64,000 nucleotides of DNA from an uncultured bacterium (GCA_963704645.1 OY969926.1:32001-96000), one strand, 5' to 3'. Positions 25,660 to 43,242 are shown, counted from the stretch's first letter. Numbers and translations are program-made. Notes: generated by a model from the letters alone, not told the origin.

Positions 25660-26970
25660 TTAAATCAGTTCAATTTCATCGTTCTTTTCAATCTCACTTT
25701 GACTATTTCCACCATCTGTAGATTTTATAACATGAGTTTTATCAATCTGCGGGTTTTGCCTAAGAATACTTAAGATTTTAAGAAAGTCACGGATAACATC
25801 GCGAGGAGTCAAAAACTCTTTAGCACCTGGTCGGTTATAAACCTCTTCCATAAAATGTTTGATATCAGATTCATTAAAATCAATGTTAGTATTATAATGA
25901 AGGTCAAAAATTTCCTTCAGATTTTTGAGTAATACAAAAATTTCCTCATTAGATAGTGGATAAAGCTTGATTACAGGTTGAGAATAATCTCTAACCTCCA
26001 AAGTTTCAAATTGATTGCTTGCAAGTCTAGATTTCAAAGCGTCATAGCTAAATAAACCTCGTCTAGTATCTTCTAAAAATTCTTTTGTCCCACCAAAGTT
26101 TATCATTAAATTAGACACCCTGCCTTGCATGCAGTCATTGTATATATTTAGTATTTTCTCGTAGTTTTTATCTCTTGTTGCTGGATGTATTATTTTGTAA
26201 AGATTGATGGCTTCATCTAAGTTTATTACTAAGCCTGAATAGCCAATTTGAACCAAAAACTTTGTCCAATTTCTTAAAATTTGATAATAATTCTCATCAT
26301 CAATAATTTCTCGTACCCCTAAATCTTGTCTAGCTTCTGTTCTGGTTGTATATTCTCCTCTTAGCCATTTCAAAGACATCCGCATAAGTTCAATATTTCC
26401 AGTTACAAACCCTTCATAATATTTAGCGACTACTTCTCCAAATTCAAAAGATCCAACATCTGTAATTTGTTTTATAGTTTCAAGAATGTTGCGCTTAACA
26501 AGCGGCAAATTTTCTATATTTCTTAAATCGTACAGTTTGATATTATTTTCTACAGCTGTTTTTTCCATAACCTCAGTAATCCAAGTTTCTAGAATTGTAC
26601 CTAAAGCATTTCCCTCAGGATTGGTTTGAATAGAGAAAGAATCTATCAAATCAGAATAAACCCTAACTGCTTTACGGCTATTGTCATATAGTCTTTTTTC
26701 AGGTGAAAAATCAGTTGATGCTACTACGAAGTTCTTTTTGAGGGCAATTTGTTTAATTAAAGCCATCATGAAGCTTTTTCCGCTTCCAAAATCTCCAATC
26801 CAAAATTTAGTGCTACTGGAACCTTTTTCCACTTCCAAAATTGTTTCTAACACACTATTGCTTTCGTTACTTCTCCCAACTAAAATGTGCTGTAAACCTA
26901 TAGGTGGGACTACCCCACCTTGTAGTGAGTTAATAATTGCAGTGGCTTCTTTTGGTTTGATATTGGTCAT
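25660..26970 (-). CDS. P-loop ATPase (DUF2791/BrxD-like), Shango SngB-like
   Basis: SLQGGVVP.IGLQHI.VGR, GDFGSGKSF, GLVINLDE and GLFSYDALKSRL. Confidence 0.88.
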   Translation of the reverse strand: MTNIKPKEATAIINSLQGGVVPPIGLQHILVGRSNESNSVLETILEVEKGSSSTKFWIGDFGSGKSFMMALIKQIALKKNFVVASTDFSPEKRLYDNSRKAVRVYSDLIDSFSIQTNPEGNALGTILETWITEVMEKTAVENNIKLYDLRNIENLPLVKRNILETIKQITDVGSFEFGEVVAKYYEGFVTGNIELMRMSLKWLRGEYTTRTEARQDLGVREIIDDENYYQILRNWTKFLVQIGYSGLVINLDEAINLYKIIHPATRDKNYEKILNIYNDCMQGRVSNLMINFGGTKEFLEDTRRGLFSYDALKSRLASNQFETLEVRDYSQPVIKLYPLSNEEIFVLLKNLKEIFDLHYNTNIDFNESDIKHFMEEVYNRPGAKEFLTPRDVIRDFLKILSILRQNPQIDKTHVIKSTDGGNSQSEIEKNDEIELI

Positions 26971-26986
26971 AAATTGATGAATGTTT

Positions 26987-29299
26987 CTAAATTAAGTTTA
27001 GATTGTAACTTGATATAAAATAAATCTGGTCATTTTGTTCAACTAAATTATCTTCATGGGTTTCATAAAACTTTTGGTTGATTTTTTGAATCAGATTATT
27101 CTTAAATTGTTTTTTAGCATTTGCAAAATCCGAGACTTGTGAATCGCTTAGCTGAAAATTGTTATTTCTAAATAAAGTTAAAAATTCAGTCTCAATATCA
27201 GTAAAATCTAATTTTGAATTTGAACCCCCAGCAAAAAAGTCTATAAGATTGCTGGTTGAATTTGAATTTTTACCTAGATTGATTTCTAAATCCTCTTCCT
27301 GTAAAAGCTGATTTAACTTAGTTGTCATTTCCAAATGAGTTTCATGAGCCTTTTGTGTTTCAGATGAATCTAATTTTAATTCTTTTCGTATTATTTTAAA
27401 AAGGTTTATTATGCTATCTCTTTTTTCATCATCGCTATGATTTAATGGATTTATGGTTTTGCAGATTATTTCGAATTGTTTTAATTTTTCTTCATCATCT
27501 TTAAAAATAGTTTGTATAACACTCAATGGTAACGTCTTAGGTTCTGGTAGATTAAAGTTTGATGAGCTTTTGAAAGTCAGTATCGCGTAATATTTATAAT
27601 AATACCATAGGCTATCAGCCTTACTTTTTGTTGAGAATTCTTTACATAGTTCTAAATAAATTAAGTAAAGACTAGGATTTTTAGAGTTTAGCTCCAAAAG
27701 TTCATCACATTTTGTTTTTAATTCAATAGATTCTAAATTGCTATCTAGTAAACTTTCTAGTTCATTTTTCCACTTTGTTTTATTTTTAATATTAAGGGCA
27801 ATTTGTGTTTCTTTAGAAGGGGTTGTTGGTTCATATCTAGAAATAAGCTCTTCAAACCCTTGCCTAATTTCCTTTCCAAGTTTTTCGGTTAAATAGACTT
27901 TTTTATATGCTACATCCTCCAGTCTAGAATGTTTATACACTTCTTTTATTTGATTCTGGCAAGTACTAAAGAGTGCCTGAAGAATTTTTGACATTGGTGA
28001 ATCATAATTTGTCTGATTATAACTGCCAGATTTATTCTTTTTTTGAGCCAAATTAAAAGTGTTTAAAACTGACTTTCTACCATATTCATTACACATATCT
28101 AAAATATAGGTTATACTTTTTAAATACAATTTAATTGTCTCATCCAAGCACTGGTCAATTTCAGTAAATATATTGTTATGAAAAGGAATTGCTTCAAGAT
28201 AAAACTTTTGTTCATTACTAAGCTCTAATCTTTTAAAAGCCAAGCCAAGAGTTTGATAAGTATTTAAATTTGAGTAAATTTGAGATTTAATATTTTCTGG
28301 CACTTCTGGCAATTTTGATAATCTAATTTTTAAATATTGCTTTAAATAATTAACAATAACTGAATCTACTTGATCTTTAAGAAGTGAAAATGAGTAGTTG
28401 CTATTATGATAGCTTCTTCCATAATAAAATTCTTCCACGCATACTTCACTCACAAAATACAGACTATAAAAAGTATTATCATAACTCATATAGCCGTAAC
28501 TCATTTTTTTTGATAGCTTTTCTAAAGTACTATTTTTTTGTGCAAGATAAATATCGGCTTGCTGACATAAATCTAAATAAAGTTTAATAGTTTGAAACTC
28601 TAAAAATTCTTTATCTTCAAATTGCCTTGAATACGATAAATCCAAGCTGTTTAAATAAAATATTTGATCTGAACTTAAATCTTTTAGTAATCTGATAGAC
28701 TTAAATTGAGTGTTAGTGATTTTAGCATTAAGTTTCGGACTTGCGTATTTTAATTCAAAAGATTGAGGATTTTTAGGTATTGGCGATGGTTTAAAATCGT
28801 CAACTTCAATAATTCCGTTGGTTATTTTTTGTTCTTTTAAAGGAATATTCGCTTGATACGATGACTTATTCTTATTAGAAAAGTACTCACTATCACCTTC
28901 AGTTATATTTTGCAAAAGGTAAGCTTTAGAGTGCACAATTAAAGTATAAAAAATTATTAGTAATGATAAAGAATACAAAGAAGAAAATATTACATAAATA
29001 CCCATTGGAATATTTAAGATAAGAGCTATATTGAAAATAAAGCTGCTGACCCCCAATATTAAGATGAATAAAAGTTTCTTACCACCCCTATCTTTAAGCT
29101 TATAAACAAATAACCCCACCATAGCTATAAAAGTTGAGAGTACCAATGGTAATAAAATCCCTAGCAATAACAAAGGTATAAATAGTAATACTGAAATTGT
29201 TACTAACAAAATCCACCTCCAACTAAAAAATAATGAATTTCTCCAGGTTTTATTTTCTAATAAATCTTTATTCAAAAACTGTATTATTTTACTTAGCAT
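26987..29299 (-). CDS. Membrane-anchored TerB-C domain protein, Shango SngA-like
   Basis: N-terminal TM helices; C-terminal LKLD...HLE...LNQLL and LIQKINQKFYETHEDNLVE (TerB-C); heads the ATPase-helicase operon. Confidence 0.78.
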   Translation of the reverse strand: MLSKIIQFLNKDLLENKTWRNSLFFSWRWILLVTISVLLFIPLLLLGILLPLVLSTFIAMVGLFVYKLKDRGGKKLLFILILGVSSFIFNIALILNIPMGIYVIFSSLYSLSLLIIFYTLIVHSKAYLLQNITEGDSEYFSNKNKSSYQANIPLKEQKITNGIIEVDDFKPSPIPKNPQSFELKYASPKLNAKITNTQFKSIRLLKDLSSDQIFYLNSLDLSYSRQFEDKEFLEFQTIKLYLDLCQQADIYLAQKNSTLEKLSKKMSYGYMSYDNTFYSLYFVSEVCVEEFYYGRSYHNSNYSFSLLKDQVDSVIVNYLKQYLKIRLSKLPEVPENIKSQIYSNLNTYQTLGLAFKRLELSNEQKFYLEAIPFHNNIFTEIDQCLDETIKLYLKSITYILDMCNEYGRKSVLNTFNLAQKKNKSGSYNQTNYDSPMSKILQALFSTCQNQIKEVYKHSRLEDVAYKKVYLTEKLGKEIRQGFEELISRYEPTTPSKETQIALNIKNKTKWKNELESLLDSNLESIELKTKCDELLELNSKNPSLYLIYLELCKEFSTKSKADSLWYYYKYYAILTFKSSSNFNLPEPKTLPLSVIQTIFKDDEEKLKQFEIICKTINPLNHSDDEKRDSIINLFKIIRKELKLDSSETQKAHETHLEMTTKLNQLLQEEDLEINLGKNSNSTSNLIDFFAGGSNSKLDFTDIETEFLTLFRNNNFQLSDSQVSDFANAKKQFKNNLIQKINQKFYETHEDNLVEQNDQIYFISSYNLNLI

Positions 29300-29310
29300 A
29301 GGGTATAAAT

Positions 29311-29571
29311 TTACTTATTTTCCAGGCTTACAATACTCTCAACCTCCTCTTTGGAAGGAAGACAGTTGGTAAACTCTGACGACATTTCAGAAAGCCTGTA
29401 TTCAGCAAAAGCCATTAGCTTATCTTTACCACCTATAGCATAATCTACTACCAGATAATTTTTATCTTTGCAGATTAAAAGCCCAATAGTTTCTTGATCT
29501 GTGTCGCTGTTAATTAAAGACATAATACGTTTACTTATTTTTATATTATCCTGTAGCTTTTTATTGAACAT
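29311..29571 (-). pseudogene. YhcG/DUF1016 PD-(D/E)XK nuclease, C-terminal fragment
   Basis: TIGLLICKDKNYLVVDYA...AEYRL...LPSKEE; only 86 aa. Confidence 0.7.
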
Positions 29572-30579
29572 ATTAAAATCAATTTAAGTAGGGCTTGTCT
29601 AATTGCCATTATAAGTTAGGCCTAAAATCAGTAATAATACCCCTAAATAAAGCTTTGCCTTTCTGTAAATACTTTTGCTTTATAATCCAGAAAGAAGAGA
29701 AGAGCTAAAAGGCCCTTTTATTCGTCAAGTTAGTAGTAGCACAAGATTAATAAGCTAATATCTGAGGTGAGGGTGTAAACTAAAAATATTTTTTACCAAC
29801 TTATGTAGCCTAATTGAATTATCTTTCTGCAAAACCCTATCCTGACAAAAAATTAATTATGCTATTATTACGAATAATGGATTTTATAAATCTATAAATT
29901 ATATGTTTTTTGGGGTTTTGGGCTAACCCACCCCTTCGCCTAAAAAAAGGTAATAATGCATATTTCTACCTTCTAAACCCCTTTATTTATCAATTCATTG
30001 ATTTATATCAATATAATAGACTGATAGACTATAAATTAATTTATAGATTAATGGTAATAAATTTATATGATCTATGGAATTAAGACAGAGCCATGAAGGA
30101 AAATAGCCATATTGTTGTATGATTAAAGGTTTATTCGATTGGTTTATGAATACTGTTATGCCACTTTATGCCTCTACAAAGTGGTTTGTGGGCATGTAAA
30201 TAAATTTCTGTAATAAATAAGCTAATTGATGTTGATAAAAAATTAATTTTGTTTATTGTCATTAATCTTCATCAATTTACATTACAAACTACCAAAGCCC
30301 TTTTAAGGTTGAATCTATCTTCGGGTAATAGTGTTGTAAATCTGATTCCTTAATTTCTTACATAAATTTTTCTTCAGATATTAGAAAATGTTATAGGCAT
30401 GTAGATATTAAGTAGCTTTATTTATCAAGTAATTCGAGCACTTCTTATATAGAGCGATCATTACTCGCATGGATATTAATCCTATTAATTTATAGTACTA
30501 ACTAACCCATTTTTCCTTTTTGACCATTCAACTTTTATGTGCAAGGTTATGGGAAATAGATGAATTAAAATAACTAACT

Positions 30580-31677
30580 ATGGAACAATATAAACCTATA
30601 ATTATAAGTCAGCCAAAAAATGAGATTGATACTCAATTTGATAGATACAAGTTTTTGGCTAGACTTGATCGCAGAGGACATGCAACCCCAAAAGAACGTT
30701 TAGAACGTTTGAAGCTAAGAAGCGAGTTAAGTGCAAAATTAACTAATGGTGGTGACGATGTCGATAAGATTATTGCTACTGCTAGTAATCCAAGGCTTTT
30801 TTTTGGTGAAACTTATTCTGAAAAAAGTGCCAGATTCGGAGATGGAAATGCTTTTGCTGGGAAAGGTAAAAAAGAAGCTGCTTTTATTGAAACTATTGCA
30901 TCAAGTTTTGAGATTGAAAAAATTATTGAAGAATTAACAGACAATCTAGCCCCTTTTAGTGTTGCTACACTAGTTTGCGGAAGTGCTGCATACTCCTTAT
31001 ACTACAACACAAGGATGGATTCAGATATTGACATTGTAGTTGCATTAGACACGGTAGACTACAGAATGTTCGACCTGGATGTGTTCGCAACACGTAAAGA
31101 TGGACTTTTAGAAAATTTCCATAAAATAAATGATGGCGAAATAGAAGATTTTGTAACTCGCCCAATTTACAAAAATAAAGGAGTAGCCTTTCATTTTATT
31201 AAAGCCAAGAGCATTGAAAAAGTATGTAACACTAATTTTTTTGAGGAAACTGATTCTAAATTTACTATTTACAAGTACAATAAGAGTAGATTTTCGAAAC
31301 TTATTGATACTGGTAGATACAGTTTTGATGGTTCGCAACATGAATGGCCTTCTTACGAGTCAACCGCAGAAAATGGTTTCCAAATAGACACACCCTTATT
31401 CAAGATAGATGAATTGGGACGCTTTGTCAGTAGTTCAGTAATTGATCGTTTTATGGTTTCTAAATTGGGCAAGGGAGAGATTGGATGGCTAGGAGATCAA
31501 CTTTACAACTTGAAAAGCAATTTAGTGAAACGACAGGTTCATGAAGAAGTAAATGGCATAATTAATTCAGATGACAGCAAACTTAGTAATTTATTTTCAA
31601 GACATGAGTATTTTTCAGATGAGTATTTAAAATATTGGGAAGAGGAAGAACTCAGTCTTCGTAAAATCATCATTTAG
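30580..31677 (+). CDS. Pol-beta-superfamily nucleotidyltransferase domain protein
   Basis: CGSAAY...DSDIDIVV (GS...DxD) signature. Confidence 0.7.
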   Translation: MEQYKPIIISQPKNEIDTQFDRYKFLARLDRRGHATPKERLERLKLRSELSAKLTNGGDDVDKIIATASNPRLFFGETYSEKSARFGDGNAFAGKGKKEAAFIETIASSFEIEKIIEELTDNLAPFSVATLVCGSAAYSLYYNTRMDSDIDIVVALDTVDYRMFDLDVFATRKDGLLENFHKINDGEIEDFVTRPIYKNKGVAFHFIKAKSIEKVCNTNFFEETDSKFTIYKYNKSRFSKLIDTGRYSFDGSQHEWPSYESTAENGFQIDTPLFKIDELGRFVSSSVIDRFMVSKLGKGEIGWLGDQLYNLKSNLVKRQVHEEVNGIINSDDSKLSNLFSRHEYFSDEYLKYWEEEELSLRKIII

Positions 31678-31680
31678 TCT

Positions 31681-32940
31681 ATGGCTATAAATCAATTTGA
31701 TAACCTTATTCAAGATAGCGGAATGGTAAAAATGATGAAAGATTTAATTCACACTTTAAAATCGCCTACCTCGATTGTTAGTAATTTAAGTGTTGGTAAT
31801 CCAGCTTCATTATCTGAAGTAGATAATTTGTGGTTAAGATCATTGCAAAAGTTGATGGATGGAAATGAAATAATTAGTTTACTAACAAAGTATGGTTCGT
31901 CTCGTGGCTATTTACCATTGCTAGAATCAATTATTAAATTGTTTAATGATGAATATGGGACTAAGCTTACTATAGACAATATTGCTGTTGGTGCGGGCAG
32001 CCAGTCAATTTATTTTTTTCTACTTAATAGATTTTCTGGCCATTCAGTAGACGGCTATAAAAAGAAGATTTTATTACCAATGCTACCTGAATATATTGGT
32101 TATCAGAGTCTATTATTAGACAAAAATAGCATCATTGGTATTCAGCCAATAATTGTTTTAAACAATTCCTCTAACTGCTTTGAGTACTTTCTGAACAAGG
32201 AGCAATTAAATATTAATAAGGAAATTGGCTGTATTGTTATATCAAGACCGGCAAATCCTACTGGTAAAATAATTTCAGGTGAGGACTTGAATTATATATT
32301 AGATGAAGCTGAGAAATTGGAAATACCAGTTATCATTGATTCTGCTTATAGCGAGCCTTTTCCCTCAATAAATATTGTGCCAACTAAGCCTATAATTCGT
32401 AAAAATGTTATAAATACTTACAGCGCTTCAAAAGCAGGAATGCCTGGAGAAAGAGTAGGTATTATAGTTGGAGATCCAGATATAATTAACCAATTTATTA
32501 ATTTCCAAACTAATACAATGATGCATTCTTCTGTTTTGGGACAGGCTATACTTGCAAAGGGTTTAGAATCTAATGAAATTTTTGATGTTTCTAAAGAAAC
32601 CATAGGACCATATTATTTTTCTGTAGCTAACAAAGTTATTGATCTGTTAAATAAATCCAAAGAACTGCATGATATTCCTTGGAGATACCACAAATACGAA
32701 GGTGGCATATTTTTGTGGCTTTGGTTTGAACATTTACCCATCAATGACTTTCAACTTTATCAAGAATTAAAAGAAGAAGGGTTGTTAGTGGTACCTGGAA
32801 ATAGTTTTTTTTATAGTTCGTCAAACTGGAATCATGCTCAGCAATGTATTCGGATAAGTCTATCTGCACCACAAAAAGAAATTTTTACTGGAATAAATAT
32901 TTTAACAAAATCAATCAAGAAAATATATGAAAATAAATGA
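31681..32940 (+). CDS. PLP-dependent class I/II aminotransferase, AvtA-like
   Basis: LSVGNPA, GSQS..F.L.N.FSG, PEYIGY, SRPANPTG, DSAY and SKAGMPGERVG. Confidence 0.88.
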   Translation: MAINQFDNLIQDSGMVKMMKDLIHTLKSPTSIVSNLSVGNPASLSEVDNLWLRSLQKLMDGNEIISLLTKYGSSRGYLPLLESIIKLFNDEYGTKLTIDNIAVGAGSQSIYFFLLNRFSGHSVDGYKKKILLPMLPEYIGYQSLLLDKNSIIGIQPIIVLNNSSNCFEYFLNKEQLNINKEIGCIVISRPANPTGKIISGEDLNYILDEAEKLEIPVIIDSAYSEPFPSINIVPTKPIIRKNVINTYSASKAGMPGERVGIIVGDPDIINQFINFQTNTMMHSSVLGQAILAKGLESNEIFDVSKETIGPYYFSVANKVIDLLNKSKELHDIPWRYHKYEGGIFLWLWFEHLPINDFQLYQELKEEGLLVVPGNSFFYSSSNWNHAQQCIRISLSAPQKEIFTGINILTKSIKKIYENK

Positions 32941-35482
32941 TAAAGATCTGCTAAGTAATCTTAATAAAATTGCAAAACCTCTGTATTCAACATCAATCAT
33001 TGACGCAAGTTCATTTGGGAGAAAGGCGGCATATTTGGGCGAGCTGATAAGTAATGGTGTCAATGTCCCAGAAGGTATTTGCCTAGACAAATCTGTTTAC
33101 AGTTTTTTTAAAAGCCAAGGGATTTTACCTGATTCCTTGATAAACGATATCAAGGAGTATGGCTCTAATAATACACAAATGGCAGTTCGTAGTTCTGCCA
33201 CCTGTGAAGACTCAGAAGAAGAAACTTTAGCAGGTTTATTCAACACCTATTATGCTTATAGTTCACAGGATATCTTAAATTCTATACAAAAAATTTATGA
33301 GGGAGCAAATTCTATTGAAACATTGGAGTCCTTATCGGTTTATGGTATAGACGATAATAATGTTGAATTAGGTGTTATTATTCAGAATCTAATTGAACCT
33401 AGCATTTCTGGAGTAATTTATAACAAATGGTTAAACAACATTTCTTTAGTACAGTACGTTGAGGGCTTTGGTAACAAGCTGGTTGATGGTGAGTTGAATG
33501 GCTACTCAATTATTTTAGACTCAAATGGTAAAATACAAGATTCCTCTGGCTTTGATATTCTAAGTATTGAGGAAAGAATAATTAAACAAATAAATGAGCA
33601 AATTAGAAAAATTAGAAAAATTGATTCTTTTAAAGGAAAAGATATTGATATTGAGTTTGCAGTGTCTAAAACAAATAATATTCTTTACATATTGCAATGC
33701 AGGGTTGTAAATAATCTGCCACCTAGTTTTGACATTGAAGAAAGTGACGAAGGAGTTATTAATTTAATTAAAAGAAGGGTGGCGATTCTTTCGCAAAATG
33801 AAAAAGCAACGATAGGTATTAAGAGCCCTATTTTTTCAAAATCAAATCATAGTGAATTATTACCTTCATCAAAAGAAATGGATGTAGGAATTTTTCAATA
33901 TATTTTTAGTGGATATGAATCAAACCCTGGAGCTATACAAATAGGGAGAAAAGAGATGGGCTATATTTTAGACGAAAGAGCCAATGGGTTAACTTACTTC
34001 ATTGGCGGAGATGCTTACATCTCTATTGCAAAAGACTCACTATCTTACTATATAGGCTTTCCAGACTCAATCGATAGCTACATTGAACAATTGGTAAATA
34101 ATTATTTAAAACAAATTTCTGATAACCATGAACTAGGACACTACCCACAAATGGGTTTATATCTTCAAGAGCCAACAATGCATGAACTAGAGGGTTTATT
34201 TAATGATAAAGCAAGCGAGTACTATGAAATATCTCAGGAATTTAATTTACATTTAGGTAAAATAGCTAAGGTATTTGAAGATGATTACAATAATAAATAT
34301 AAGCCCCAACTAGATTTATTTTTAGATTCTGTTACTGTAAAGATTAATAAAGAAGATGATTCAGAAAAGTTGGTTAGTTTAATTGATCAAGTTTTGTATA
34401 ATTTAAAAAATCACTCGTGCGTGTATTTCGTTATAGCTGCACGGCTTGGTTTTTATTTCACGCAAAAACTAAGGAAGTCCCTACACCATTCAGGAATGGA
34501 TCAAAACTCAATAGATAACTACTTTAGTCTTTTTGTTCAAGGTCTAGATAATAGTGAATTTACAAGATCAAATCTTATAATTGCCGCTTCCGCCAACATA
34601 GCTGAAGCTTCTAGCATAGCATTGAAAGTTATCGGCCATTACAGCACAGGCGAAATGTTGGAAATTCACCCTCCGAGAATTTCTGAATCTTCTAGTGAGC
34701 TTAAATCTTATGTAGAAAGTATTTATAACAGTAATTACATTGAGACTTTTAATACACAAGTTAAAGAGAGAGAAGTTGCTGAATTAGAGATTGTAAATAA
34801 GATTGATGACCTAGGTTTAACTGAAATAATAAAGTTTACCCAAAGGTACATGGGGTTAAGGGAAACTATTAAATACAATTTTGTTAAAGAATATGGAATA
34901 ATTAGACAGTGTTTAGTAAAATTAGAAAAGAATTTCAACCTGCACCAAGGAGATATATTTTATTTATACCCTTGGGAGATAAGTACTTTATTACAGAATC
35001 AAAGTGAATTTACTCATATAATTAAGTACAGAAAAAGACTGCATGATAAATTTAAAAAGGTAAATATGCCTTTTATTATTGATGCAAACAATTTAGATAA
35101 TATTAAGTTTAATTTTTCCATTGTTAATGAACAGGGCAGCCATACAGGTGTATTGGTATCGAAGGGTAAAAATATCGAAGGAATGATAGTTAACAAGAAA
35201 GACTTTATTAGTAATTCAGAAATCAGCGATTATATTAAAGAATTAAAAAGCCAAGGAATAAATGTTATTTTAACGTCAAATCAATTAAGTATAGGTGATG
35301 ATCCTCTTATTGTTTCAAGCGATGCAATACTACTTGGTAAATCTGGTTTTGTTTCGCATGGTTCTCAAAGAGCTAGAGAATTGGGCAAAGGAGCACTGTC
35401 AGGTCTGCCAATTGAATTGTTTACTACTGGATGTTACGTAAGTATAGATTTTAAATCAAAAATAGCAAGAATTTTAAAATAA
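32927..35482 (+). CDS. PEP-utilising dikinase (PPDK_N ATP-grasp + helical domain + phospho-His domain; rifampin-phosphotransferase-like layout)
   Basis: GRKAAYL, AVRSSATCED, LAGLFNT, DIEFA, ILQCR; C-terminal SHGSQRARELG. Confidence 0.85.
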   Translation: MKINDKDLLSNLNKIAKPLYSTSIIDASSFGRKAAYLGELISNGVNVPEGICLDKSVYSFFKSQGILPDSLINDIKEYGSNNTQMAVRSSATCEDSEEETLAGLFNTYYAYSSQDILNSIQKIYEGANSIETLESLSVYGIDDNNVELGVIIQNLIEPSISGVIYNKWLNNISLVQYVEGFGNKLVDGELNGYSIILDSNGKIQDSSGFDILSIEERIIKQINEQIRKIRKIDSFKGKDIDIEFAVSKTNNILYILQCRVVNNLPPSFDIEESDEGVINLIKRRVAILSQNEKATIGIKSPIFSKSNHSELLPSSKEMDVGIFQYIFSGYESNPGAIQIGRKEMGYILDERANGLTYFIGGDAYISIAKDSLSYYIGFPDSIDSYIEQLVNNYLKQISDNHELGHYPQMGLYLQEPTMHELEGLFNDKASEYYEISQEFNLHLGKIAKVFEDDYNNKYKPQLDLFLDSVTVKINKEDDSEKLVSLIDQVLYNLKNHSCVYFVIAARLGFYFTQKLRKSLHHSGMDQNSIDNYFSLFVQGLDNSEFTRSNLIIAASANIAEASSIALKVIGHYSTGEMLEIHPPRISESSSELKSYVESIYNSNYIETFNTQVKEREVAELEIVNKIDDLGLTEIIKFTQRYMGLRETIKYNFVKEYGIIRQCLVKLEKNFNLHQGDIFYLYPWEISTLLQNQSEFTHIIKYRKRLHDKFKKVNMPFIIDANNLDNIKFNFSIVNEQGSHTGVLVSKGKNIEGMIVNKKDFISNSEISDYIKELKSQGINVILTSNQLSIGDDPLIVSSDAILLGKSGFVSHGSQRARELGKGALSGLPIELFTTGCYVSIDFKSKIARILK

Positions 35483-35486
35483 ACAT

Positions 35487-36446
35487 ATGACTGAAAACAT
35501 TGACCAGATCTTAAAATACTACCAAATTAATGAGCTAGACTCTACTGAGTCTGTTACTATTAAACATTTTCATGGCTTAGCCAAACATAATATAAAAAGA
35601 CTATCATCAGTTGTAGATTCAAAAGACTTGGTAAAGATAATTAAGGGTGAATTATCTTTTGAAGATTCCCACAGGATTTCAGCTGTTATTGAGAATAAAA
35701 TTTTCTCGACTATAGAATTAGATGAACACAAACTAGTTGATCATTTTAACTCACCTGACTCAATACATTTGTCTGAATTAGGGATACTAAATATAGAGAA
35801 ACAGATTAAGGGTAAGCAAACAGCAATTGAAAAGCTTCTTTCTCAAAGAGATTTGGGATTATTTTTAGTAAGACCAGAAGCCTATCATCTTATTGAAAGA
35901 ATAAAAATTATATTGGAATCAAACGGACTTAGAATAATTCTATCAAAGAAAACGGAAGTAAATTCAGAACAATATTGGGCTTTGTGCAATGAAAGGCTTG
36001 TGGACTCTAGAACCAATATACATGTTAGATCTAGGGCTTTTGGCTACGTAAATAAACCATTGTACCTATTTGTTTTTGAGCGTGGTGATAATTGTTTAAT
36101 TGAAAGCAATAAACCACTTTCTGATTCTCTAAAAGTTATTAAAGGTATTGCTGGATATTATCAAAAAGGTACAATAAGAGGAGATCTACTTTACGAGTCT
36201 CTTCATTCTTATTTTTATGGTGATAATGCCAGATTGTCTCGTTTGGCTGAACTTGCGCTTGACCCTATAAAAATATATGAAACATTATCTCAAGACACAA
36301 ATGTTTTCTATCAAAAAAATGTACTTTATAAAAGGCTAGCTTCACTACCTGGGGTACACTCCCCTGAAAGCCATGAACTGGTAAAAGATATATCTTGCCT
36401 AATGAGCAAATCTGATATTGAGCTTCTCTTGCATCCAATGCCCTAA
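35487..36446 (+). CDS. Nucleoside-diphosphate-kinase-like protein
   Basis: LFLVRPEA, KG...GTIRGD and GVHSPES equivalents of the NDK motifs. Confidence 0.7.
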   Translation: MTENIDQILKYYQINELDSTESVTIKHFHGLAKHNIKRLSSVVDSKDLVKIIKGELSFEDSHRISAVIENKIFSTIELDEHKLVDHFNSPDSIHLSELGILNIEKQIKGKQTAIEKLLSQRDLGLFLVRPEAYHLIERIKIILESNGLRIILSKKTEVNSEQYWALCNERLVDSRTNIHVRSRAFGYVNKPLYLFVFERGDNCLIESNKPLSDSLKVIKGIAGYYQKGTIRGDLLYESLHSYFYGDNARLSRLAELALDPIKIYETLSQDTNVFYQKNVLYKRLASLPGVHSPESHELVKDISCLMSKSDIELLLHPMP

Positions 36447-36447
36447 A

Positions 36448-37173
36448 ATGACAAAAAACATTTATTCATACTTGGCTTACCGTGACTACCAAAATTCGGG
36501 CAGTCCTTATTCAGCATTGATTACAAACAATGCTATAGATGTAGCTCTTGATAGAATATTAAAACCTCATGATGTAACCCATCACTTCATATCTGGCTTT
36601 CTCGACGAGCTAGGAATTAATATACTTGGGAAGACAATACCTCAAGCAAGTATTTTAAACGAAATTATAACGATAGCTTTAACCTTAATTACTATCCCAA
36701 CTTATGCCAAAGTAAGAATGGACAGGATAACAAAGAAATTTAATTTAGATAGGATTTCTTCAGAAGATAGTCTTATCTATTATGAGAGAAAGTGCGTAGA
36801 ACTTTTCACACTGAAATACTTAGCTCGGACAATATCTGATTTTAAAGGTTTAGATTATATGATTGATGAAGGTAGAAAAATAATTTATGATCAATTTTCT
36901 GATTTGGAAAATCAAATTATTACATTACAAGAAATTTTTGATATATCAATAGATCTTTCCAAAAAAATAATTCACATTGAACCACAAAGAATTAATAGTT
37001 GGAACGAGATTGCGAATAAACATATATATTGGTTCAACGGCAAAGGCAATAATAAATTCTCCATTGCGATGACAGCGAACCAAAGCTCATTATATGGTAA
37101 ATATACAGATTACGATAAATATTCTAACTCTCTAAACCAAAAAGTTCAATTTATTAGTAAATACTTAATTTAG
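36448..37173 (+). CDS. Hypothetical protein
   Basis: ATG 1 nt after the NDK-like stop; helical; no motif recognised. Confidence 0.7.
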   Translation: MTKNIYSYLAYRDYQNSGSPYSALITNNAIDVALDRILKPHDVTHHFISGFLDELGINILGKTIPQASILNEIITIALTLITIPTYAKVRMDRITKKFNLDRISSEDSLIYYERKCVELFTLKYLARTISDFKGLDYMIDEGRKIIYDQFSDLENQIITLQEIFDISIDLSKKIIHIEPQRINSWNEIANKHIYWFNGKGNNKFSIAMTANQSSLYGKYTDYDKYSNSLNQKVQFISKYLI

Positions 37174-37223: not shown

Positions 37224-37667
37224 ATGCCAAAGCCAACTGATCCAAAAAAGTGGACACACATGTTCACAGATGACATCAAATTTTCTCAAAAAGCTATAAT
37301 ACTTCACCCCTCTGATGAAACTTTTTTAGTGCTTCAAAGATCTTTAAGCTCCAAAACACACCCAGGATATTGGGACTTTGCTGGTGGCAACGTTTTATAT
37401 GGAGATTCTTCCAAAAATTCCTTGCTAAGTGAAGTTAAAGAAGAAACAGGACTATCAATAACAAACGATTTAACACCCTTAGTCGTTGACGGGAAAATGC
37501 GAGAAGAAAATGGATTTTACCGAATCTTTGTTGGATATTTAACAAAAGCCTTGGAGGATAATGTTACCATTAGCCATGAACATATTGATTATAAGTGGGT
37601 ATCAAAAGATGAATTTATGCTGCTTGAAACTGTAGACATACTCAAAGAAATGGTGAAAAAAATATAG
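37224..37667 (+). CDS. Nudix hydrolase
   Basis: WDFAGGNV.YGD...SEVKEETGL Nudix box; EHIDYKWV. Confidence 0.88.
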   Translation: MPKPTDPKKWTHMFTDDIKFSQKAIILHPSDETFLVLQRSLSSKTHPGYWDFAGGNVLYGDSSKNSLLSEVKEETGLSITNDLTPLVVDGKMREENGFYRIFVGYLTKALEDNVTISHEHIDYKWVSKDEFMLLETVDILKEMVKKI

Positions 37668-37705: not shown

Positions 37706-38395
37706 CTAGAGTTTTGTATTCCATCCTTTTAACGTCCACCCCATTTCATCATAAGAAGAAATGAAAGCTGCAGTGCTATCCAAATCAAGGTATCTTACAC
37801 TTTGAGTGTTGTAACCAAGAATGTAGTGAAAGAAGCACTTAATCACTTTTGCATGAGTAACAATAAGAATATTAGACACCTCATGTGTTTCGCTTTGTTT
37901 AGACAAGACATCTTCCAGCCATCCAGATGCTCTTCTTTCGATCATTTGCTGTGATTCACCATTTGGCGGTTGAAAAAAATAGCCTCTAGCCCTAATTAGA
38001 GCTTTTACCTCTGGTAAATAAGTTTGTTTTTTATCGCACCCTTCCCAGTCGCCCTGATCAATTGGATTAATTTCAGCAACTTTAAGCACTTTATTGCTTA
38101 TAACGCTGTCGACCTTCCCAAGCTCAGAAATGATGATTTCAGCACTCCTAATTGCTCTTAGTGCCTCAGAGCTGTAAATTTGATTAAAGACAATACCAAG
38201 GCTGGCAAGTTTTTTCCCAATAGATTCTGCTTGAGAAATACCCAATGATGTTAGGTCTGACTCAAGACGCTTTCCTAAAATTACATCTTTTACTAAATGA
38301 TCAGTATCACTTTGTCCGTGACGAACCATATAGACATTAATAAGGAATTTTTTCACTATCTTGTCATTATTAAAAGAACTTTTAAGAGATAACAT
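37706..38395 (-). CDS. Histidine phosphatase family protein
   Basis: VRHGQS, SSEALRA, GES and VTH. Confidence 0.9.
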   Translation of the reverse strand: MLSLKSSFNNDKIVKKFLINVYMVRHGQSDTDHLVKDVILGKRLESDLTSLGISQAESIGKKLASLGIVFNQIYSSEALRAIRSAEIIISELGKVDSVISNKVLKVAEINPIDQGDWEGCDKKQTYLPEVKALIRARGYFFQPPNGESQQMIERRASGWLEDVLSKQSETHEVSNILIVTHAKVIKCFFHYILGYNTQSVRYLDLDSTAAFISSYDEMGWTLKGWNTKL

Positions 38396-38451: not shown

Positions 38452-39225
38452 ATGATAATACAATCTTTTGATTGGAACAATAATGTAAACGAAAGTAATA
38501 GCATAACTAGTGAGTCTATTAGAGAATTATTTAGTTGTAAGATAGCTCTTATAGTAGTTAAAGATTTTTACACGAATAATGAGTTAAGTGAGTTAAATGA
38601 CAAAATATCTACTGAAAAAATAAGGTGGATTGTCAGGCATACTAGAATGGGACGGTTTGGACTAACAGCTCGAGAACAGCGAAAATTGCTGGCTGAAGAC
38701 AAAGGTGATATTATAGATCAAGTACGAGCAGAATTAAATACTGCGTTAGGAGAAAGATTTGTAGAGAGAATAAAGCAAATATTTAATATTTTTGCCCCTA
38801 CAGAATTAAAAACAGAACAAAATTTTATTTACGCAGCACCTATTATCCGATATTTTCCATATGCTGACTACCATACTGATTTTGTACCTCAACAAGATAA
38901 GGATTGGAACTTTCCAGATATAATCAAGCAATTCTCTGTAAACTTACATTTAAGCGACCACATTGGTAATGAAGGATCTCTCAGGTTGGCAAAACGAGAG
39001 TATGATTATGACGATGATAAATATGCAATTGGCGACTTTGGCTATTCAGAAGAAATAGTTAAAGGCTATAAATTAGTTTCTTATATCCCAAAAAAAGGTG
39101 ATCTAGTAATAATCAATACTCAGAACTACCATTGTTTCACGCAGTCATCCAATCTTATTGAAATGATTGGTTTGTTTGGAGCTTTGACGAAATCAGACTC
39201 GGAGCATATTTATTTGTGGCCATAA
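38452..39225 (+). CDS. 2OG-Fe(II) oxygenase superfamily protein
   Basis: HTD...QFSVNLHL...GDLVIINTQNYH (HxD...H triad). Confidence 0.75.
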   Translation: MIIQSFDWNNNVNESNSITSESIRELFSCKIALIVVKDFYTNNELSELNDKISTEKIRWIVRHTRMGRFGLTAREQRKLLAEDKGDIIDQVRAELNTALGERFVERIKQIFNIFAPTELKTEQNFIYAAPIIRYFPYADYHTDFVPQQDKDWNFPDIIKQFSVNLHLSDHIGNEGSLRLAKREYDYDDDKYAIGDFGYSEEIVKGYKLVSYIPKKGDLVIINTQNYHCFTQSSNLIEMIGLFGALTKSDSEHIYLWP

Positions 39226-39226: not shown

Positions 39227-39850
39227 ATGATTAAACTTTACCTAGTAAGACATGGAGAGTCCGTAATTAATTTAAATAGCAAGACATTTGGGAGTGGATC
39301 TCAAGGGGGTTTAACACACACTGGTGTAGATCAAGCACAAAAAACAGGTGAATGGTTTAAACAGGAAAATATACATTTAGATTACTTTATCACCTCACCC
39401 TATGAAAGAGCCGAAAGTACAATAAATATTATTTTAAAAACTTTAAATTTTGATATTAATAAAGTAATAATTGACCCTTCGCTTTCTGAATGGAATAGAG
39501 GAAGATATTCAGCAATGCCAAAAAGTGAAGCCTGCGATTTGTTGGGAATAAAAAAAAGGGGAGATCTTGGGGCTTGGTTTAATCTGGAAGAGGGTGAGTC
39601 CATTAAACTAATGCAGGCTCGTTTTATAATTTGGATGAATGAAATTACAAACAAATACTATAAAGATGATGTATCAGTTCTAGTTATAACCCATGGTCAT
39701 TTTTTAAAATTTGGGCTTATGTCTATTTTCAACACGCCTGATAATATGCAGAAACTTATAAAAATTAATAACTGTGGGATAACACGTATTGATTTTGTAA
39801 ATAATGAGTGGATTCCTGGAATGATGAATTTTACTGATCACTTAGATTAA
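39227..39850 (+). CDS. Histidine phosphatase family protein
   Basis: LVRHGES, TSPYERA, GES and ITHG. Confidence 0.9.
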   Translation: MIKLYLVRHGESVINLNSKTFGSGSQGGLTHTGVDQAQKTGEWFKQENIHLDYFITSPYERAESTINIILKTLNFDINKVIIDPSLSEWNRGRYSAMPKSEACDLLGIKKRGDLGAWFNLEEGESIKLMQARFIIWMNEITNKYYKDDVSVLVITHGHFLKFGLMSIFNTPDNMQKLIKINNCGITRIDFVNNEWIPGMMNFTDHLD

Positions 39851-39884: not shown

Positions 39885-40412
39885 ATGCTCGGACCAAAAA
39901 TTATAGTAGATAGCAATATTACTTTACGTGAATTTCAGAAAGATGATACGTTGCTTTGTCTTAAGTGGAATAACGATATAGACTCTCAAAAGTACATGCC
40001 TGAACCTTTTGAAGTTAGAACAATTTTAGATGAGAATGAGTTTTTAGAAGAAGCAACCAAAGAAGAAGATGGTATTTACTGGACTATTGAAGACAGCGCT
40101 ACTTCAACACCAATAGGAATAGTTTCTGTTACTGAAATAAGCCAGCATCACGGGCTTGGTGAGATTGGTATTATTATTGGCGAAAAAGCCTATCACAGTA
40201 AAGGTATTGCAAGTAAGGTAATTGCAGGTGTTTTAGACTATTGTAAAAGTAATGGTTTAAGAAGAATAACCGCAGAATATGAAGAAGGAAACATTGGTAT
40301 GCAAAAAGCCTTGGAAAAAAATAGTTTTATTTTGGAGGCTAAATGCATTGATTCCAGAGTAAAGAATAGTCTTCCAATTAATACTTTTAGATATTATAAG
40401 TTGATTGATTAG
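39885..40412 (+). CDS. GNAT acetyltransferase (RimJ/RimL-like)
   Basis: EIGIIIGEK.YHSKGIA and NIGMQKALEKNSF. Confidence 0.88.
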   Translation: MLGPKIIVDSNITLREFQKDDTLLCLKWNNDIDSQKYMPEPFEVRTILDENEFLEEATKEEDGIYWTIEDSATSTPIGIVSVTEISQHHGLGEIGIIIGEKAYHSKGIASKVIAGVLDYCKSNGLRRITAEYEEGNIGMQKALEKNSFILEAKCIDSRVKNSLPINTFRYYKLID

Positions 40413-40484
40413 AGTAATTATAGTTTAGGTAATAGCCCCCAGCCAATTTACATAATATAATAAAAGTCTTTGTTTAATCAATAT

Positions 40485-40952
40485 ATGCCAAATTTAGAAT
40501 CACAAAAATACAGAGCTAGTGTTGCTGGAATGTTCATTAAAGATAACAGAGAGGTTCTTTTAGTACAAAACAATTCGTTTGGTGCCGATGAGTGGGATTT
40601 TCCTAAAGGAGGTATGAATCTGGGCGAAGACGAAGAAGATACTTTGAAAAGAGAGATACAAGAAGAGCTTGGTGACAAAATTAAATATTCAATAATTAGA
40701 GCAAGTTCATGCAATATAATTTACACTTGGTCTAAAGAAAAGCAAGCAAGGGAGGGTATGCGTGGTCAGGCAAGAATTAGTTATTGGTTAAAATATATTG
40801 AAGAAGAAATTGAAATTGATACAAGCGAACTTAGAGACTATAAATGGGTAGCAGTGACAGAATTGGAAGAAGTTCTGAAAAAGTCTAACTGGCCTTTAGA
40901 AATAGTTGAAAGTCTATTGTTTGATTTAAAAAGTGTATTAAGACAGGTATAG
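40485..40952 (+). CDS. Nudix hydrolase (RppH-like)
   Basis: YRASV, WDFPKGGMNLGE...REIQEELG and RGQ. Confidence 0.88.
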   Translation: MPNLESQKYRASVAGMFIKDNREVLLVQNNSFGADEWDFPKGGMNLGEDEEDTLKREIQEELGDKIKYSIIRASSCNIIYTWSKEKQAREGMRGQARISYWLKYIEEEIEIDTSELRDYKWVAVTELEEVLKKSNWPLEIVESLLFDLKSVLRQV

Positions 40953-41130: not shown

Positions 41131-41430
41131 TTATTTATTGCCATTTAATTTATCAAAATGACTTTTTATCTTCTTAAATTGGTCTGTCATTTGTGGTGGT
41201 TTAGGTTTTATACCTTCAAATAGTTTTTCTAAACTAATTCCTAATACTCCAGCTATATTTACTAGATTATTAAATGATATATTATTCTCCCCTCTTTCCA
41301 CAGCCCCAATAAATGTTCTATGAAGGCCAGACATCATTGCAAGCTCTTCTTGAGATAAATTAAGGCTTTCTCTGGTTAGCTTTATGTTCTTACCTAACTG
41401 TATTAAATAGTTGCTAGAATTGTTTTCCAT
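41131..41430 (-). CDS. XRE-family HTH regulator (C-protein-like)
   Basis: LSQEELA..SGLHRTFIGAVERGENNISF. Confidence 0.9.
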   Translation of the reverse strand: MENNSSNYLIQLGKNIKLTRESLNLSQEELAMMSGLHRTFIGAVERGENNISFNNLVNIAGVLGISLEKLFEGIKPKPPQMTDQFKKIKSHFDKLNGNK

Positions 41431-41477
41431 GAAGCCAATCAAACCTATTTGACAAAGTTTATACTACAGTGTTTGTA

Positions 41478-41608: not shown

Positions 41609-41680
41609 AAATTTAACCTTCCAAACTTTATTAAAGAAACAACATTGACAAATTATACTATCTGGTATAGTTTAATTATT

Positions 41681-43231
41681 ATGCTTCAAGCAATTATATA
41701 CTGCCGTGTTTCTAGTGAAAAACAGGTAACTCAAGGACATGGTTTAGATAGCCAAGAAAAAAGATGTAGAGGGCACGCAAAAAGTCGGGGTTATAAAGTA
41801 ATTAAAATTTTTAGAGAAGAAGGTGTGTCTGGAAAACATTTAATTAGGCCAGAGATGGAAAATTTAATTCAATACCTTTCTAAAAATGCAACAAAAGAAA
41901 ACCCTGTCGCTGTTATTATTGATGATTTAAAAAGATTCGGCCGTGAAACTGAGAACCACTTTTCTCTCAAAAAGAGGATTTATGATAAAAATGGGTTTCT
42001 TGATTCTCCAAGTTTTAGATTTGAACAAAACCCTAATAACAAATTTCTTGAAACAATGTTGGTGGCACACGGAACTTTAGAACGGGAAGAAAATGCCATA
42101 CATGTTAAAAATAAAATGGTTGCCAGATTAGAATCTGGGTATTGGACAAGTAAAGCACCAACTGGCTATAAAATAGTGAATAAAACTGGAAGTGGTAAAA
42201 TACTAGTTATAGATGAAACTTATGGACCAGTTATAAAACAAGCATTGGAAAACTTTTCAAATCAGATTATTTTAACACAAATTGATTTCTGCAATTATCT
42301 TAACAAGCACGGTGTAAAAATTAGCGCAGAAGGAGCAAGAGGAATTTTAAAAAGTGCTGTTTATGCTGGCTATTTAGGAGGAAATGGGTACACAGTAACT
42401 TTAAGACCAGCAAAGCATGAGGGGTTAATTAATTGGAGTACCTACGAGAAGATACAAGGTTTAATCAAAGGCAAGGCCAAGGTAATATATCACTCAGACA
42501 ACGCTACAGACTTTCCTTTAAGAAACTTTATAAAATGTGCCACTTGCCAAAACTTAATGTGCTCTAATTGGGTTGCAGGAAGAAGTAAAAAATATCCCTA
42601 TTATGTTTGTAAGAACAGGTATTGCGATGAATTTAACAAAAATATTTCAAGGGAAGATGTTGAAAGTGAATTTGTAACCATTTTAGAAACAATAACACCC
42701 AAAGGAAATGTATTAAACTTAGCTGAGGCTATTTTAAAAGATGTTTGGAAAAATCAAGATACAGATAACTCAAAAATCGAAAAGGCTCTTAAAACGAAGC
42801 TAAATGCAATTAAACTAGAGTCTGGAAATATAATTGATAGAATATCTAAGACCGAGAGGCAATCTGTGATCAGCATCTATGAAAATAAGTTAGAGGAAAT
42901 TGAAATTGAAAAAGAAAATTTAACAAACCAAATAAAAAATTTAAATACTAACAAGCCAAACTTTCAAACCAGCTTAAAATTAGTTTTAGAATTTATACAA
43001 AATGTAGGAAATATCTGGTCTAAAGGTAATTTAGAGCTTAAACGTTTGGTTTTAAAATTGGTTTTTGATAACTTCCTAGTTTATAGTAAAAAAGATGGTT
43101 TTCAAACCGCCACTTTATCTGGAATATATCAGCTATTTTCTGTTTTTGTTACTACCAAAACAAGTATGGTGGACCTTAGCGGGTTTGAACCGCTCACCTC
43201 TTCCATGCCATGGAAGCGCTCTACCAAATGA
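41681..43231 (+). CDS. Large serine recombinase (resolvase + recombinase + Zn-ribbon domains)
   Basis: IYCRVSS catalytic Ser, EGVSG, RFGR, APTGY, CATC...YYVCKNRYC, coiled coil; runs through the att core into antisense tRNA. Confidence 0.93.
   Translation: MLQAIIYCRVSSEKQVTQGHGLDSQEKRCRGHAKSRGYKVIKIFREEGVSGKHLIRPEMENLIQYLSKNATKENPVAVIIDDLKRFGRETENHFSLKKRIYDKNGFLDSPSFRFEQNPNNKFLETMLVAHGTLEREENAIHVKNKMVARLESGYWTSKAPTGYKIVNKTGSGKILVIDETYGPVIKQALENFSNQIILTQIDFCNYLNKHGVKISAEGARGILKSAVYAGYLGGNGYTVTLRPAKHEGLINWSTYEKIQGLIKGKAKVIYHSDNATDFPLRNFIKCATCQNLMCSNWVAGRSKKYPYYVCKNRYCDEFNKNISREDVESEFVTILETITPKGNVLNLAEAILKDVWKNQDTDNSKIEKALKTKLNAIKLESGNIIDRISKTERQSVISIYENKLEEIEIEKENLTNQIKNLNTNKPNFQTSLKLVLEFIQNVGNIWSKGNLELKRLVLKLVFDNFLVYSKKDGFQTATLSGIYQLFSVFVTTKTSMVDLSGFEPLTSSMPWKRSTK
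43165..43180 (+). repeat. att core, right junction
   Basis: TATGGTGGACCTTAGC; overlaps the tRNA CCA end and recombinase codons MVDLS. Confidence 0.92.
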
Positions 43232-43242
43232 GCTAAAGGCCC
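43167..43242 (-). tRNA. tRNA-Ala(GGC)
   Basis: GGGCCTTTAGCTCATTTGGTAGAGCG-CTTCC-ATGGCAT-GGAAG...GGTTCAAACCC...TCCACCA; 76 nt with encoded CCA. Confidence 0.97.

Follow-up and report, generated by a model that had tools for sequence, protein, structure and literature searches.

A five-gene operon on a tRNA-Ala island of an uncultured bacterium includes an RPH-fold dikinase from a family associated with tryptophan control

Within a window of 64,000 nucleotides (nt) from an uncultured bacterium (GCA_963704645.1 OY969926.1:32001-96000; "the window" denotes this whole stretch, and positions are counted from its first letter) we analysed an operon of five open reading frames (ORFs) at 30580-37173. 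The third of these encodes a dikinase of the rifampin phosphotransferase (RPH) fold, whose family, sampled as 25 related loci, is associated with tryptophan (Trp) control. This Trp-regulon dikinase family is of more interest than the five-gene operon, and its Trp control is not visible from the window alone. For the operon itself we favour, with a probability of about 0.45, the reading that a kinase and a phosphate-removing partner, recruited together with an AvtA-type aminotransferase, act on what we infer to be an amino-acid-derived small molecule. The five genes are the following.

30580-31677, plus strand: ORF1, probable Pol-beta-type nucleotidyltransferase, 365 amino acids (aa), with GS134-135 and D147/D149
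31681-32940, plus strand: ORF2, pyridoxal phosphate (PLP) aminotransferase of the AvtA clade (valine-pyruvate transaminase family), 419 aa
32927-35482, plus strand: ORF3, RPH-fold dikinase, 851 aa, with ATP-grasp, acceptor and His swivel domains in this order (Pfam)
35487-36446, plus strand: ORF4, phospho-histidine protein (H291) of the nucleoside diphosphate kinase (NDK) fold, 319 aa, with an N-terminal helical extension and insertions
36448-37173, plus strand: ORF5, protein of unassigned function, 241 aa

The gaps between consecutive genes are 3, -14, 4 and 1 nt, reproducing the spacing given in a preliminary description of this DNA, and only one of 21 other same-strand gaps is as tight as these junctions (-14 to +4 nt). 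The five ORFs are not due to chance, because each has at least 241 codons and the longest stop-free run over 100 shuffles of the island that carries them was 183 codons; the 241 aa of ORF5 are counted from the ATG at 36448, the ORF finder beginning this gene at a TTG at 36418. The catalytic motifs listed in the preliminary description are likewise all present, namely GS..DSD in ORF1, the PLP Lys in ORF2, H811 in ORF3 and H291 in ORF4. Scans for promoters and terminators gave counts at chance level (49 vs 63 expected and 5 vs 4.6, respectively), and codon usage was uninformative, since it does not set the five genes apart and ORF1 tends towards the core genes.

Both sequence and predicted structure support ORF3 as an RPH-fold small-molecule dikinase with an intact catalytic set, and the RPH layout proposed for it earlier was confirmed by domain order, fold and catalytic residues. 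The model (predicted local distance difference test, pLDDT, 90) has rifampin phosphotransferase 5hv1 as its top structural match (Foldseek E 1.9e-29; Z 25.8). Among the residues listed for ORF3 (K33, R88, N307, E310, R645, E646, K649 and H811), K33, R88, R645, E646, K649 and H811 align with RPH K22, R117, R666, E667, K670 and H825, catalytic residues whose importance was established by mutagenesis or structure (accessible text of PMC4844700). These six are conserved in 92-93 of 93 relatives and also in a 95% identical relative. The protein is nevertheless far from every described family for which a model was scored, with 66.4 bits on the rph model NF041857 (cut-off 999), 77.4 bits on PRK05849 (cut-off 501; control protein 760.6) and 52.5 and 42.1 bits on the PigC and RedH models (cut-offs 1300 and 1350). 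The earlier statement that the operon matches no described pathway was upheld. Its own relatives comprise 123 matches over residues 255-851, nearly all at 33-41% identity, the best one from an unrelated strain at E 4e-129. Plasmid and phage records contained no member of the dikinase family: ORF3 had no full-length match there, and the protein of locus L003 had only full-length matches at 22-23% identity.

The 25 loci that serve as a sample of the family came from a genome scan with two peptide patterns, one genome per species, and 15 of them have at least 2.5 kb of upstream and 1.8 kb of downstream flank. At least one sign of Trp control (trpR, a TrpR box, a UGG T-box, a Trp-rich leader or trpS) was found in 16 of the 25, in none of the seven loci where the dikinase is coupled to an AsnB-like amidotransferase, and not in L025. 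The trpR gene occurs in eight loci and trpS in six, with two copies in L004 and all seven trpS genes above the TIGR00233 cut-off. Leaving aside two truncated loci, a TrpR box with at least 12 of 14 matching positions was found in 8 of 23 upstream regions of up to 800 nt, against 0 of 434 background windows; the palindrome fits the TrpR motif of PMC9413887 and not the Firmicutes HisR motif given there (accessible text). Operators of the TrpR type stand upstream of trpR or of the dikinase in L003, L011, L013, L014, L017, L018, L022 and L023. In L003 and L014 the dikinase is preceded by trpR, by a leader ORF that contains Trp and by a hairpin resembling a terminator, an arrangement that suggests repression plus attenuation. 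Leader ORFs with WWW or WW are found in L005, L011 and L014, the count being limited to such runs since short ORFs with a single Trp also precede AsnB-type loci.

A T-box motif was seen in four further leaders, all four with UGG in a very short stem-I loop, where it would be the specifier codon. Three of these loci have Rfam T-box matches that stay below the gathering score (E 2e-12, 4e-7 and 1e-7), and L004 has none even by E-value; at the gathering score, no T-box was found in the 19 of 25 loci scanned. The leaders are located as follows.

L001:9654-9859, below-threshold T-box leader
L002:8286-8487, below-threshold T-box leader
L006:958-1137, below-threshold T-box leader
L004, T-box motif about 220 nt before the match

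These T-box leaders have an ultra-short stem I (about 4-6 bp) followed by a terminator, come from probable Patescibacteria, and routine annotation would overlook them. The stability of the short stem-I hairpins does not exceed that of shuffled sequences.

Enzymes required under scarcity of an amino acid are depleted in that amino acid. The dikinases of the 17 non-AsnB loci (L025 excluded) contain 2 Trp in 14,405 residues, against 148 expected at a background of 1.03%, and the His-phosphatases of the same loci contain 1 Trp in 2,496 residues; the AsnB-group dikinases have 14 in 5,968, and three distant proteins of the same fold have 10-11 each. The low Trp content shows that the enzyme is needed under starvation and does not discriminate between salvage, detoxification and modification of tRNA-Trp or tryptophanyl-tRNA synthetase (TrpRS). 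Neither trpB nor any other trp biosynthesis gene was found in the scanned flanks of the Trp-linked loci. For the ancestral family we favour, at about even odds, salvage of Trp via a phosphorylated intermediate over detoxification of an analogue or reversible modification of tRNA-Trp or TrpRS.

A second property of the family is its tight coupling to the following gene, which lies -14 to +41 nt from the dikinase in all 25 loci and encodes a His-phosphatase in 12, a low-molecular-weight (LMW) phosphatase in four, an AsnB-like amidotransferase in seven, TrpR in one and a cystathionine-lyase-like PLP enzyme in one (the phosphatases were mostly assigned by BLAST cluster, seven being scanned with Pfam). 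A phosphatase is thus directly next in 16 of 25 loci, and in 21 when the five of seven AsnB loci with a phosphatase right after AsnB are counted. In the window this slot, 4 nt after the dikinase, holds the NDK-fold His protein ORF4, and two His-phosphatases are encoded 2-4 kb further downstream.

Several loci of the sample have features of their own. The AsnB-coupled clade (AsnB, then phosphatase; L008, L009, L010, L015, L016, L021 and L024) has different residues at 323-373; in L008 and L021 a carbamoyltransferase adjoins the dikinase, and the AsnB-type dikinase of Paenibacillus ferrarius lies in a cluster with an FkbO-like protein, BtrH-like proteins and a nonribosomal peptide synthetase (NRPS). 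The dikinase of L009:5923-9435 has 310 additional N-terminal residues with an RHG motif, which probably represent a fused histidine phosphatase, and that of L001:9881-12491 is split into two overlapping ORFs by a frameshift or assembly error. In Tenacibaculum amylolyticum (L025:3221-18305) a YqcI/YcgG-family gene, the dikinase and the cystathionine-lyase-like gene sit inside a defence island (Zorya II, AriAB, TIR and PDC-S54) and look like a small amino-acid antimetabolite cluster. A membrane protein that has no Pfam match, labelled by eye as drug/metabolite-transporter (DMT)-like, recurs in five of the 25 loci, and racemases and YbaK-type tRNA-editing domains each occur near the dikinase in two. 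Named carriers include Amesbacteria, Peribacteria, Wirthbacteria, Saccharibacteria, Paenibacillus and Tenacibaculum; the Gammaproteobacteria titles on many carrier records are doubtful, because the L009 protein is identical to a Daviesbacteria-named protein.

The window copy shows none of the control elements of its relatives: a TrpR box is lacking (the best scores being 9 of 14 positions upstream of it and 10 of 14 anywhere on the island), neither a T-box motif nor an Rfam T-box was detected, and the locus has no trpR or trpS. ORF3 nonetheless matches the majority Trp-type state at eight of the ten positions at which the Trp-linked and AsnB-linked groups differ, and because this signature persists while the control elements are absent, it is best described, at the sequence level, as a descendant of the Trp-linked type that was freed from Trp control, possibly with altered specificity. 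It is also Trp-poor, with 2 Trp in 851 residues (P 0.003), ORF1 and ORF2 having three and five. L025, the other long-branch copy, is coupled to a PLP amino-acid enzyme too.

That ORF4 is NDK-like, as stated before, was borne out by the structure search and by a conserved His. Its model (pLDDT 93) matches Staphylococcus aureus NDK (3q83_A) over residues 121-319 with Z 13.2, a root-mean-square deviation of 2.7 and 137 aligned residues in a wide structure search, whose eight best rows all have Z of at least 11.4 and include three chains titled NDK. Foldseek returned nothing at E<=0.001 for this model, though the rows listed were almost all NDKs, there was no Pfam NDK match at E 0.1 (the best relative reaching 19.3 bits against a cut-off of 27), and the comparison of the family profile with E. 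coli Ndk by hhalign was not significant (probability 1.3%), so that the fold assignment comes from the structure search. A full HMMER scan recovered 97 representatives of the family at E<=0.001, 96 more than a word-indexed search, which gave only a near-identical protein, and H291 is present in 99% of 86 aligned sequences. Like an NDK, ORF4 has the TxRG motif and the conserved His; it differs in its length of 319 aa with extra helices, in Arg129 replacing the N-terminal Lys, and in having a Pro after the His and no Asn three residues before it. The N-terminal Lys and the Asn near the catalytic His have canonical roles in NDKs. The NDK-like domain is fused to the dikinase in none of 120 dikinase relatives. 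Within the NDK-like family, five of the six long proteins among 21 scanned are fusions, two to APH-type kinases and three to P-loop kinase-like domains (P0131, P0149, P0160, P0166 and P0198).

ORF2 is the best assigned of the remaining proteins, scoring 449.6 bits on the valine-pyruvate transaminase model NF006967 (NCBIfam equivalog cut-off 402) and matching PDB 3g7q at E 2.7e-74, with its PLP lysine within SASKAG at 248-253. It resembles AvtA in passing this cut-off and in its identity of about 34% to the enterobacterial enzyme, and differs from it in being operonic and on an island. Because equally distant AvtA-like relatives in Streptomyces sit in biosynthetic clusters (NRPS, halogenase), the substrate of ORF2 may differ from that of AvtA. 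One such region, on a Streptomyces plasmid (L029:3314-14580), combines the aminotransferase with leucine-pathway genes, an adenylation domain, a chlorinating enzyme and a thioesterase. ORF1 has GS at 134-135 and DSD at 147-149, which fits GS-x(9-13)-DxD, as well as a weak Pfam match to NTP_transf_2 (E 0.08) and Atlas feature matches of 0.91-0.93, one of them an NTP_transf_2 cluster, with few shared features. The sole match of ORF1 in a word-indexed search was a 98% identical relative, in a type of search that missed 96 ORF4 relatives; its place in a pathway is uncertain and has no comparative support. The same lack of comparative support applies to ORF5: it matched none of the Pfam, NCBIfam and PADLOC models, comparisons with PHROGs, PDB sequences and plasmids gave no significant hit, and its top Atlas score was 0.83. 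In plasmid and phage records, neither ORF1 and ORF5 nor P0123, a relative from the NDK-like family, was matched.

To evaluate synteny, six-frame translations of all 25 loci were searched with BLASTP, phmmer and an HMM of the NDK-like family. A conserved five-gene system is not supported among dikinase relatives, where the absence of co-occurrence that the preliminary description had itself named as the observation against its reading was found: no relative of ORF1, ORF2, ORF4 or ORF5 was detected in any of the 25 loci (best E 0.46), 15 of which have enough flank on both sides. Proteins 94-98% identical to ORF1, ORF3 and ORF4 do exist (these three genes were searched), each with 40,280 bases as its longest contig; this suggests a single close relative that carries the same island and does not count as independent evidence. 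The five genes are best explained as an assembly that is rare and specific to one lineage rather than as a conserved system.

In the mechanism that we propose, ORF3 would move the beta-phosphate of ATP via His811 to a small acceptor, yielding AMP and inorganic phosphate. In the ancestral setting, with no trp genes nearby, a dikinase-phosphatase pair would recover Trp from a derivative or precursor via a phosphorylated intermediate. ORF4, judged by its position, would take the phosphatase slot, receiving the phosphate on His291 and then releasing it or passing it on, and would represent a further unrelated enzyme type in the phosphate-removing role, after histidine, LMW and HAD phosphatases. 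The coupling of ORF2 is consistent with an enzyme that would interconvert the amino-acid substrate and its 2-oxo acid, supplying or recycling substrate, and the acceptor would most likely be amino-acid-derived, possibly still aromatic. ORF1 may add a nucleoside monophosphate to the phosphorylated product, by analogy with the nucleotidyl step of the Campylobacter pathway (accessible parts of PMC11800397 and PMC6429109) and with the later transferase that decorates the phosphate of the TalE product (accessible part of PMC6482885).

The operon is followed by six further small enzyme genes, extending to 40952, which the preliminary description had overlooked and which are possibly accessory.

37224-37667, plus strand: Nudix (Pfam)
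37706-38395, minus strand: His-phosphatase (Pfam; an RHG motif is among the motifs of the array)
38452-39225, plus strand: 2-oxoglutarate (2OG)-Fe oxygenase-like protein (Pfam), with H141-x-D143
39227-39850, plus strand: His-phosphatase (Pfam)
39885-40412, plus strand: GNAT (Pfam)
40470-40952, plus strand: Nudix (Pfam)

The 2OG-Fe protein has a weak WelO5 match but retains H-x-D, and from its sequence it is more likely a hydroxylase than a halogenase.

All of these genes lie on an element of 22.3 kb (20831-43180) at a tRNA-Ala gene, which we consider an integrated island because it is bounded by a 16-bp repeat of the tRNA-Ala end (about 1e-5 expected by chance) and has a serine recombinase at that end. 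A mobile island beside a defence system had already been proposed, and both elements were found.

20831-20846, plus strand: left attachment site, 16-bp copy of the tRNA-Ala 3' end
23461-25611, minus strand: Shango SngC (PADLOC E 2.9e-198)
25660-26970, minus strand: Shango SngB (PADLOC E 2.4e-159)
26987-29299, minus strand: Shango SngA (PADLOC E 6.6e-9)
41131-41442, minus strand: XRE-type helix-turn-helix (HTH) regulator
41645-43231, plus strand: large serine recombinase, its frame extending into the tRNA end
43165-43180, minus strand: right attachment site, 16-bp direct repeat of the left site
43167-43242, minus strand: tRNA-Ala(GGC)

The Shango operon is divergent from the five-gene operon and lies to its left on the same island. 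Upstream of SngA there is an 86-aa C-terminal piece of a YhcG/PDC-S02 nuclease (29311-29571, minus strand), apparently a remnant, and the 1-kb stretch between Shango and the operon (29572-30579) is AT-rich, with no ORF of more than 61 codons and no Rfam match. Of two other island genes (21354-23363, minus strand), one encodes 286 aa including a MerR-like HTH and the other a Trp-free protein of 318 aa with no assigned function. Elsewhere in the window a lysyl-tRNA synthetase is fused to a C-terminal DUF2000 domain (16575-18683, minus strand), and proteins of 1401 aa (51923-56128, minus strand) and 393 aa (50724-51905, minus strand) match nothing in Pfam or NCBIfam. A Patescibacteria-type bacterium is the probable host, given the T4SS_pilin gene in the window, which we take to be associated with such bacteria, the absence of Shine-Dalgarno-like upstream sequence and the named dikinase relatives.

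Several observations weigh against the kinase and phosphate-removing pair as the explanation of the operon. Because a dikinase paired with an NDK-fold protein or AvtA was found in none of the 25 loci, the argument for replacement of the phosphatase comes from gene position in a single lineage; the two ordinary His-phosphatases 2-4 kb downstream could be the real partners, and ORF4 may be less active, since it carries Cys167 at a position that is Tyr in 87% of the family. The ten diagnostic positions of the dikinase were chosen by a two-group contrast, in which Trp-type denotes a majority state that is maybe simply ancestral. In addition, ORF3 departs from the family at 36 of 189 conserved positions, lacks E491, R494, R581 and H582, which are kept by 87-92 of 93 relatives, and forms the longest branch in a quick tree, where its placement is unsure; possibly it is decaying or now acts on a different substrate. 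These substitutions, the absence of the set from all 25 loci, the continuation of the array for six more genes, one of them inverted, and a codon usage that does not mark the five genes out and in which ORF1 leans to the core genes would all fit an island that gathered unrelated phosphate and nucleotide genes, a drifting dikinase and a housekeeping-type aminotransferase, with no single pathway and with spacing that reflects only co-transcription. We regard this as unlikely, since the four junctions are matched in tightness by so few other gaps, since all 25 relatives have a close, recurrent or enzymatically plausible gene after the dikinase, and since the catalytic residues are intact, also in the 95% identical relative.

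A distinctly less probable explanation is that the product of the operon is an antimetabolite such as a nucleotide-linked amino-acid phosphoramidate (an aminoacyl-adenylate mimic or chain terminator) directed against phages or competitors, with a TalE-like N-P bond and a nucleotide added by the nucleotidyltransferase. TalE N-phosphorylates Leu-Trp, and the clusters for agrocin 84 and phaseolotoxin are described as containing homologues of pyruvate phosphate dikinase (accessible part of PMC6482885); the neighbourhood of L025, the NRPS cluster of the AsnB-linked Paenibacillus copy and the NRPS and halogenase clusters around AvtA-like genes in Streptomyces point the same way. A supposed AsnB parallel with agrocin 84 was not borne out by the accessible part of the review PMC8323819. 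None of the three Streptomyces avtA-like regions has an annotated dikinase, and no exporter or immunity synthetase was recognised in a Pfam scan of the island. Of the anti-phage role suggested earlier, the adjacency to Shango stands, whereas PADLOC matched none of the five genes at E<=0.001; moreover, this adjacency carries little weight, because defence genes were found near the dikinase in five of 25 loci (41 hand-picked neighbours scanned), including the Trp-regulated L001, L002, L011 and L022 besides L025. Detoxification, in which ORF3 would inactivate an antibiotic or toxic amino-acid analogue, the nucleotidyltransferase, GNAT and Nudix proteins would modify others, and the ancestral target would be a Trp analogue poisoning TrpRS at low Trp, draws on RPH as the closest structural match, on relatives near the two trpS genes of L004, racemases, YbaK-type editing domains and the recurring membrane protein, and on a Trp-free enzyme suiting any task under Trp shortage. 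It is improbable, as the rph score is far below its cut-off, a coupled phosphatase would reverse the inactivation, and TrpR operators respond to free Trp rather than to inhibition of the synthetase. Least probable of all is a Campylobacter-type O-methyl phosphoramidate (MeOPN) for surface glycans, made by a glutamine kinase and a nucleotidyltransferase. A PRK05849-type protein does align with the full length of the dikinase family (hhalign, 19% identity at a probability of 97%) and there are glycosyltransferases in the window, outside the island; however, the phosphoramidate analogy drawn in the preliminary description fails on the family score (77.4 bits vs 501) and on partner genes, the island genes scanned including no gamma-glutamyl hydrolase, choline-type cytidylyltransferase or adenylylsulfate-kinase-like gene, whereas a protein above the PRK05849 cut-off has the hydrolase and a cytidylyltransferase beside it.

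Returning to the kinase and phosphate-removing pair, a wider and more speculative extension, which we consider unlikely as a whole, is that reduced-genome (Patescibacteria-type) bacteria have an undescribed, tryptophan-synthase-independent Trp route via an ATP-driven phosphorylated intermediate, purged of Trp and controlled by TrpR, attenuator or T-box according to lineage, and that the window operon repurposed its enzyme to an amino-acid-phosphate or nucleotidyl pathway with an NDK-fold partner removing the phosphate. The amino-acid supply of reduced-genome symbionts is an open question, for which this family, an enzyme of about 860 residues, almost without Trp, with three kinds of Trp sensing and a coupled partner always next to it, offers a testable lead to a Trp-supply or Trp-starvation step. 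Along with the copies coupled to AsnB or to a PLP lyase, the window illustrates how such a module can enter new gene sets. Taken by itself, the five-gene operon is of lesser importance as long as neither a product nor another, diverged instance of it is available. No description of the dikinase subfamily, its Trp-regulon link or the NDK-fold family was found in the literature searched, which covered titles and abstract openings with most subscription journals and supplements outside, so that regulon tables in supplements could already list this dikinase gene. The Trp-regulon subfamily is thus apparently undescribed, whereas its superfamily and chemistry are known.

Among the known systems, RPH-Lm (5hv1/5fbs; accessible text of PMC4844700) shares with ORF3 the domain order, the fold and the catalytic Lys, Arg, Arg-Glu-x-x-Lys and His, and differs in its identity of only 16-20%, in a middle acceptor domain that is unalignable by sequence, and in the coupling of the ORF3 family to a phosphatase or NDK-fold gene, with relatives under Trp control. 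The condensing enzymes PigC and RedH have an RPH-type layout and match ORF3 weakly, far below their cut-offs, with no pyrrole pathway genes in the operon's surroundings. The glutamine kinase Cj1418 is presumably itself a match to PRK05849. With Cj1415-Cj1417 it forms a system (accessible parts of PMC6429109 and PMC11800397) that resembles the operon in domain layout, a homologous acceptor domain and a nearby nucleotidyltransferase, and differs in the family score, in hydrolase and kinase partners that are absent here, and in the Pol-beta-type motif of ORF1, which has no NTP_transferase Pfam match. On an Agrobacterium vitis plasmid (L031:2528-10859) a PRK05849-type kinase, a gamma-glutamyl hydrolase and a cytidylyltransferase, together with a divergent aminoacyl-tRNA-ligase-like gene and a TauD oxygenase, form a possible phosphoramidate cluster. 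TalE of the phosphoramidon/talopeptin tal cluster (accessible part of PMC6482885), likened here by its description, is a PEP-synthase-like kinase that acts via a phospho-His on a Trp-containing small molecule and is followed by a phosphate-decorating transferase; the ATP-grasp ligase and the glycosyltransferase of that cluster are absent from the operon and island. If the proposed Trp-linked activity is true, it would add a new acceptor to the superfamily formed by RPH, TalE and glutamine kinase.

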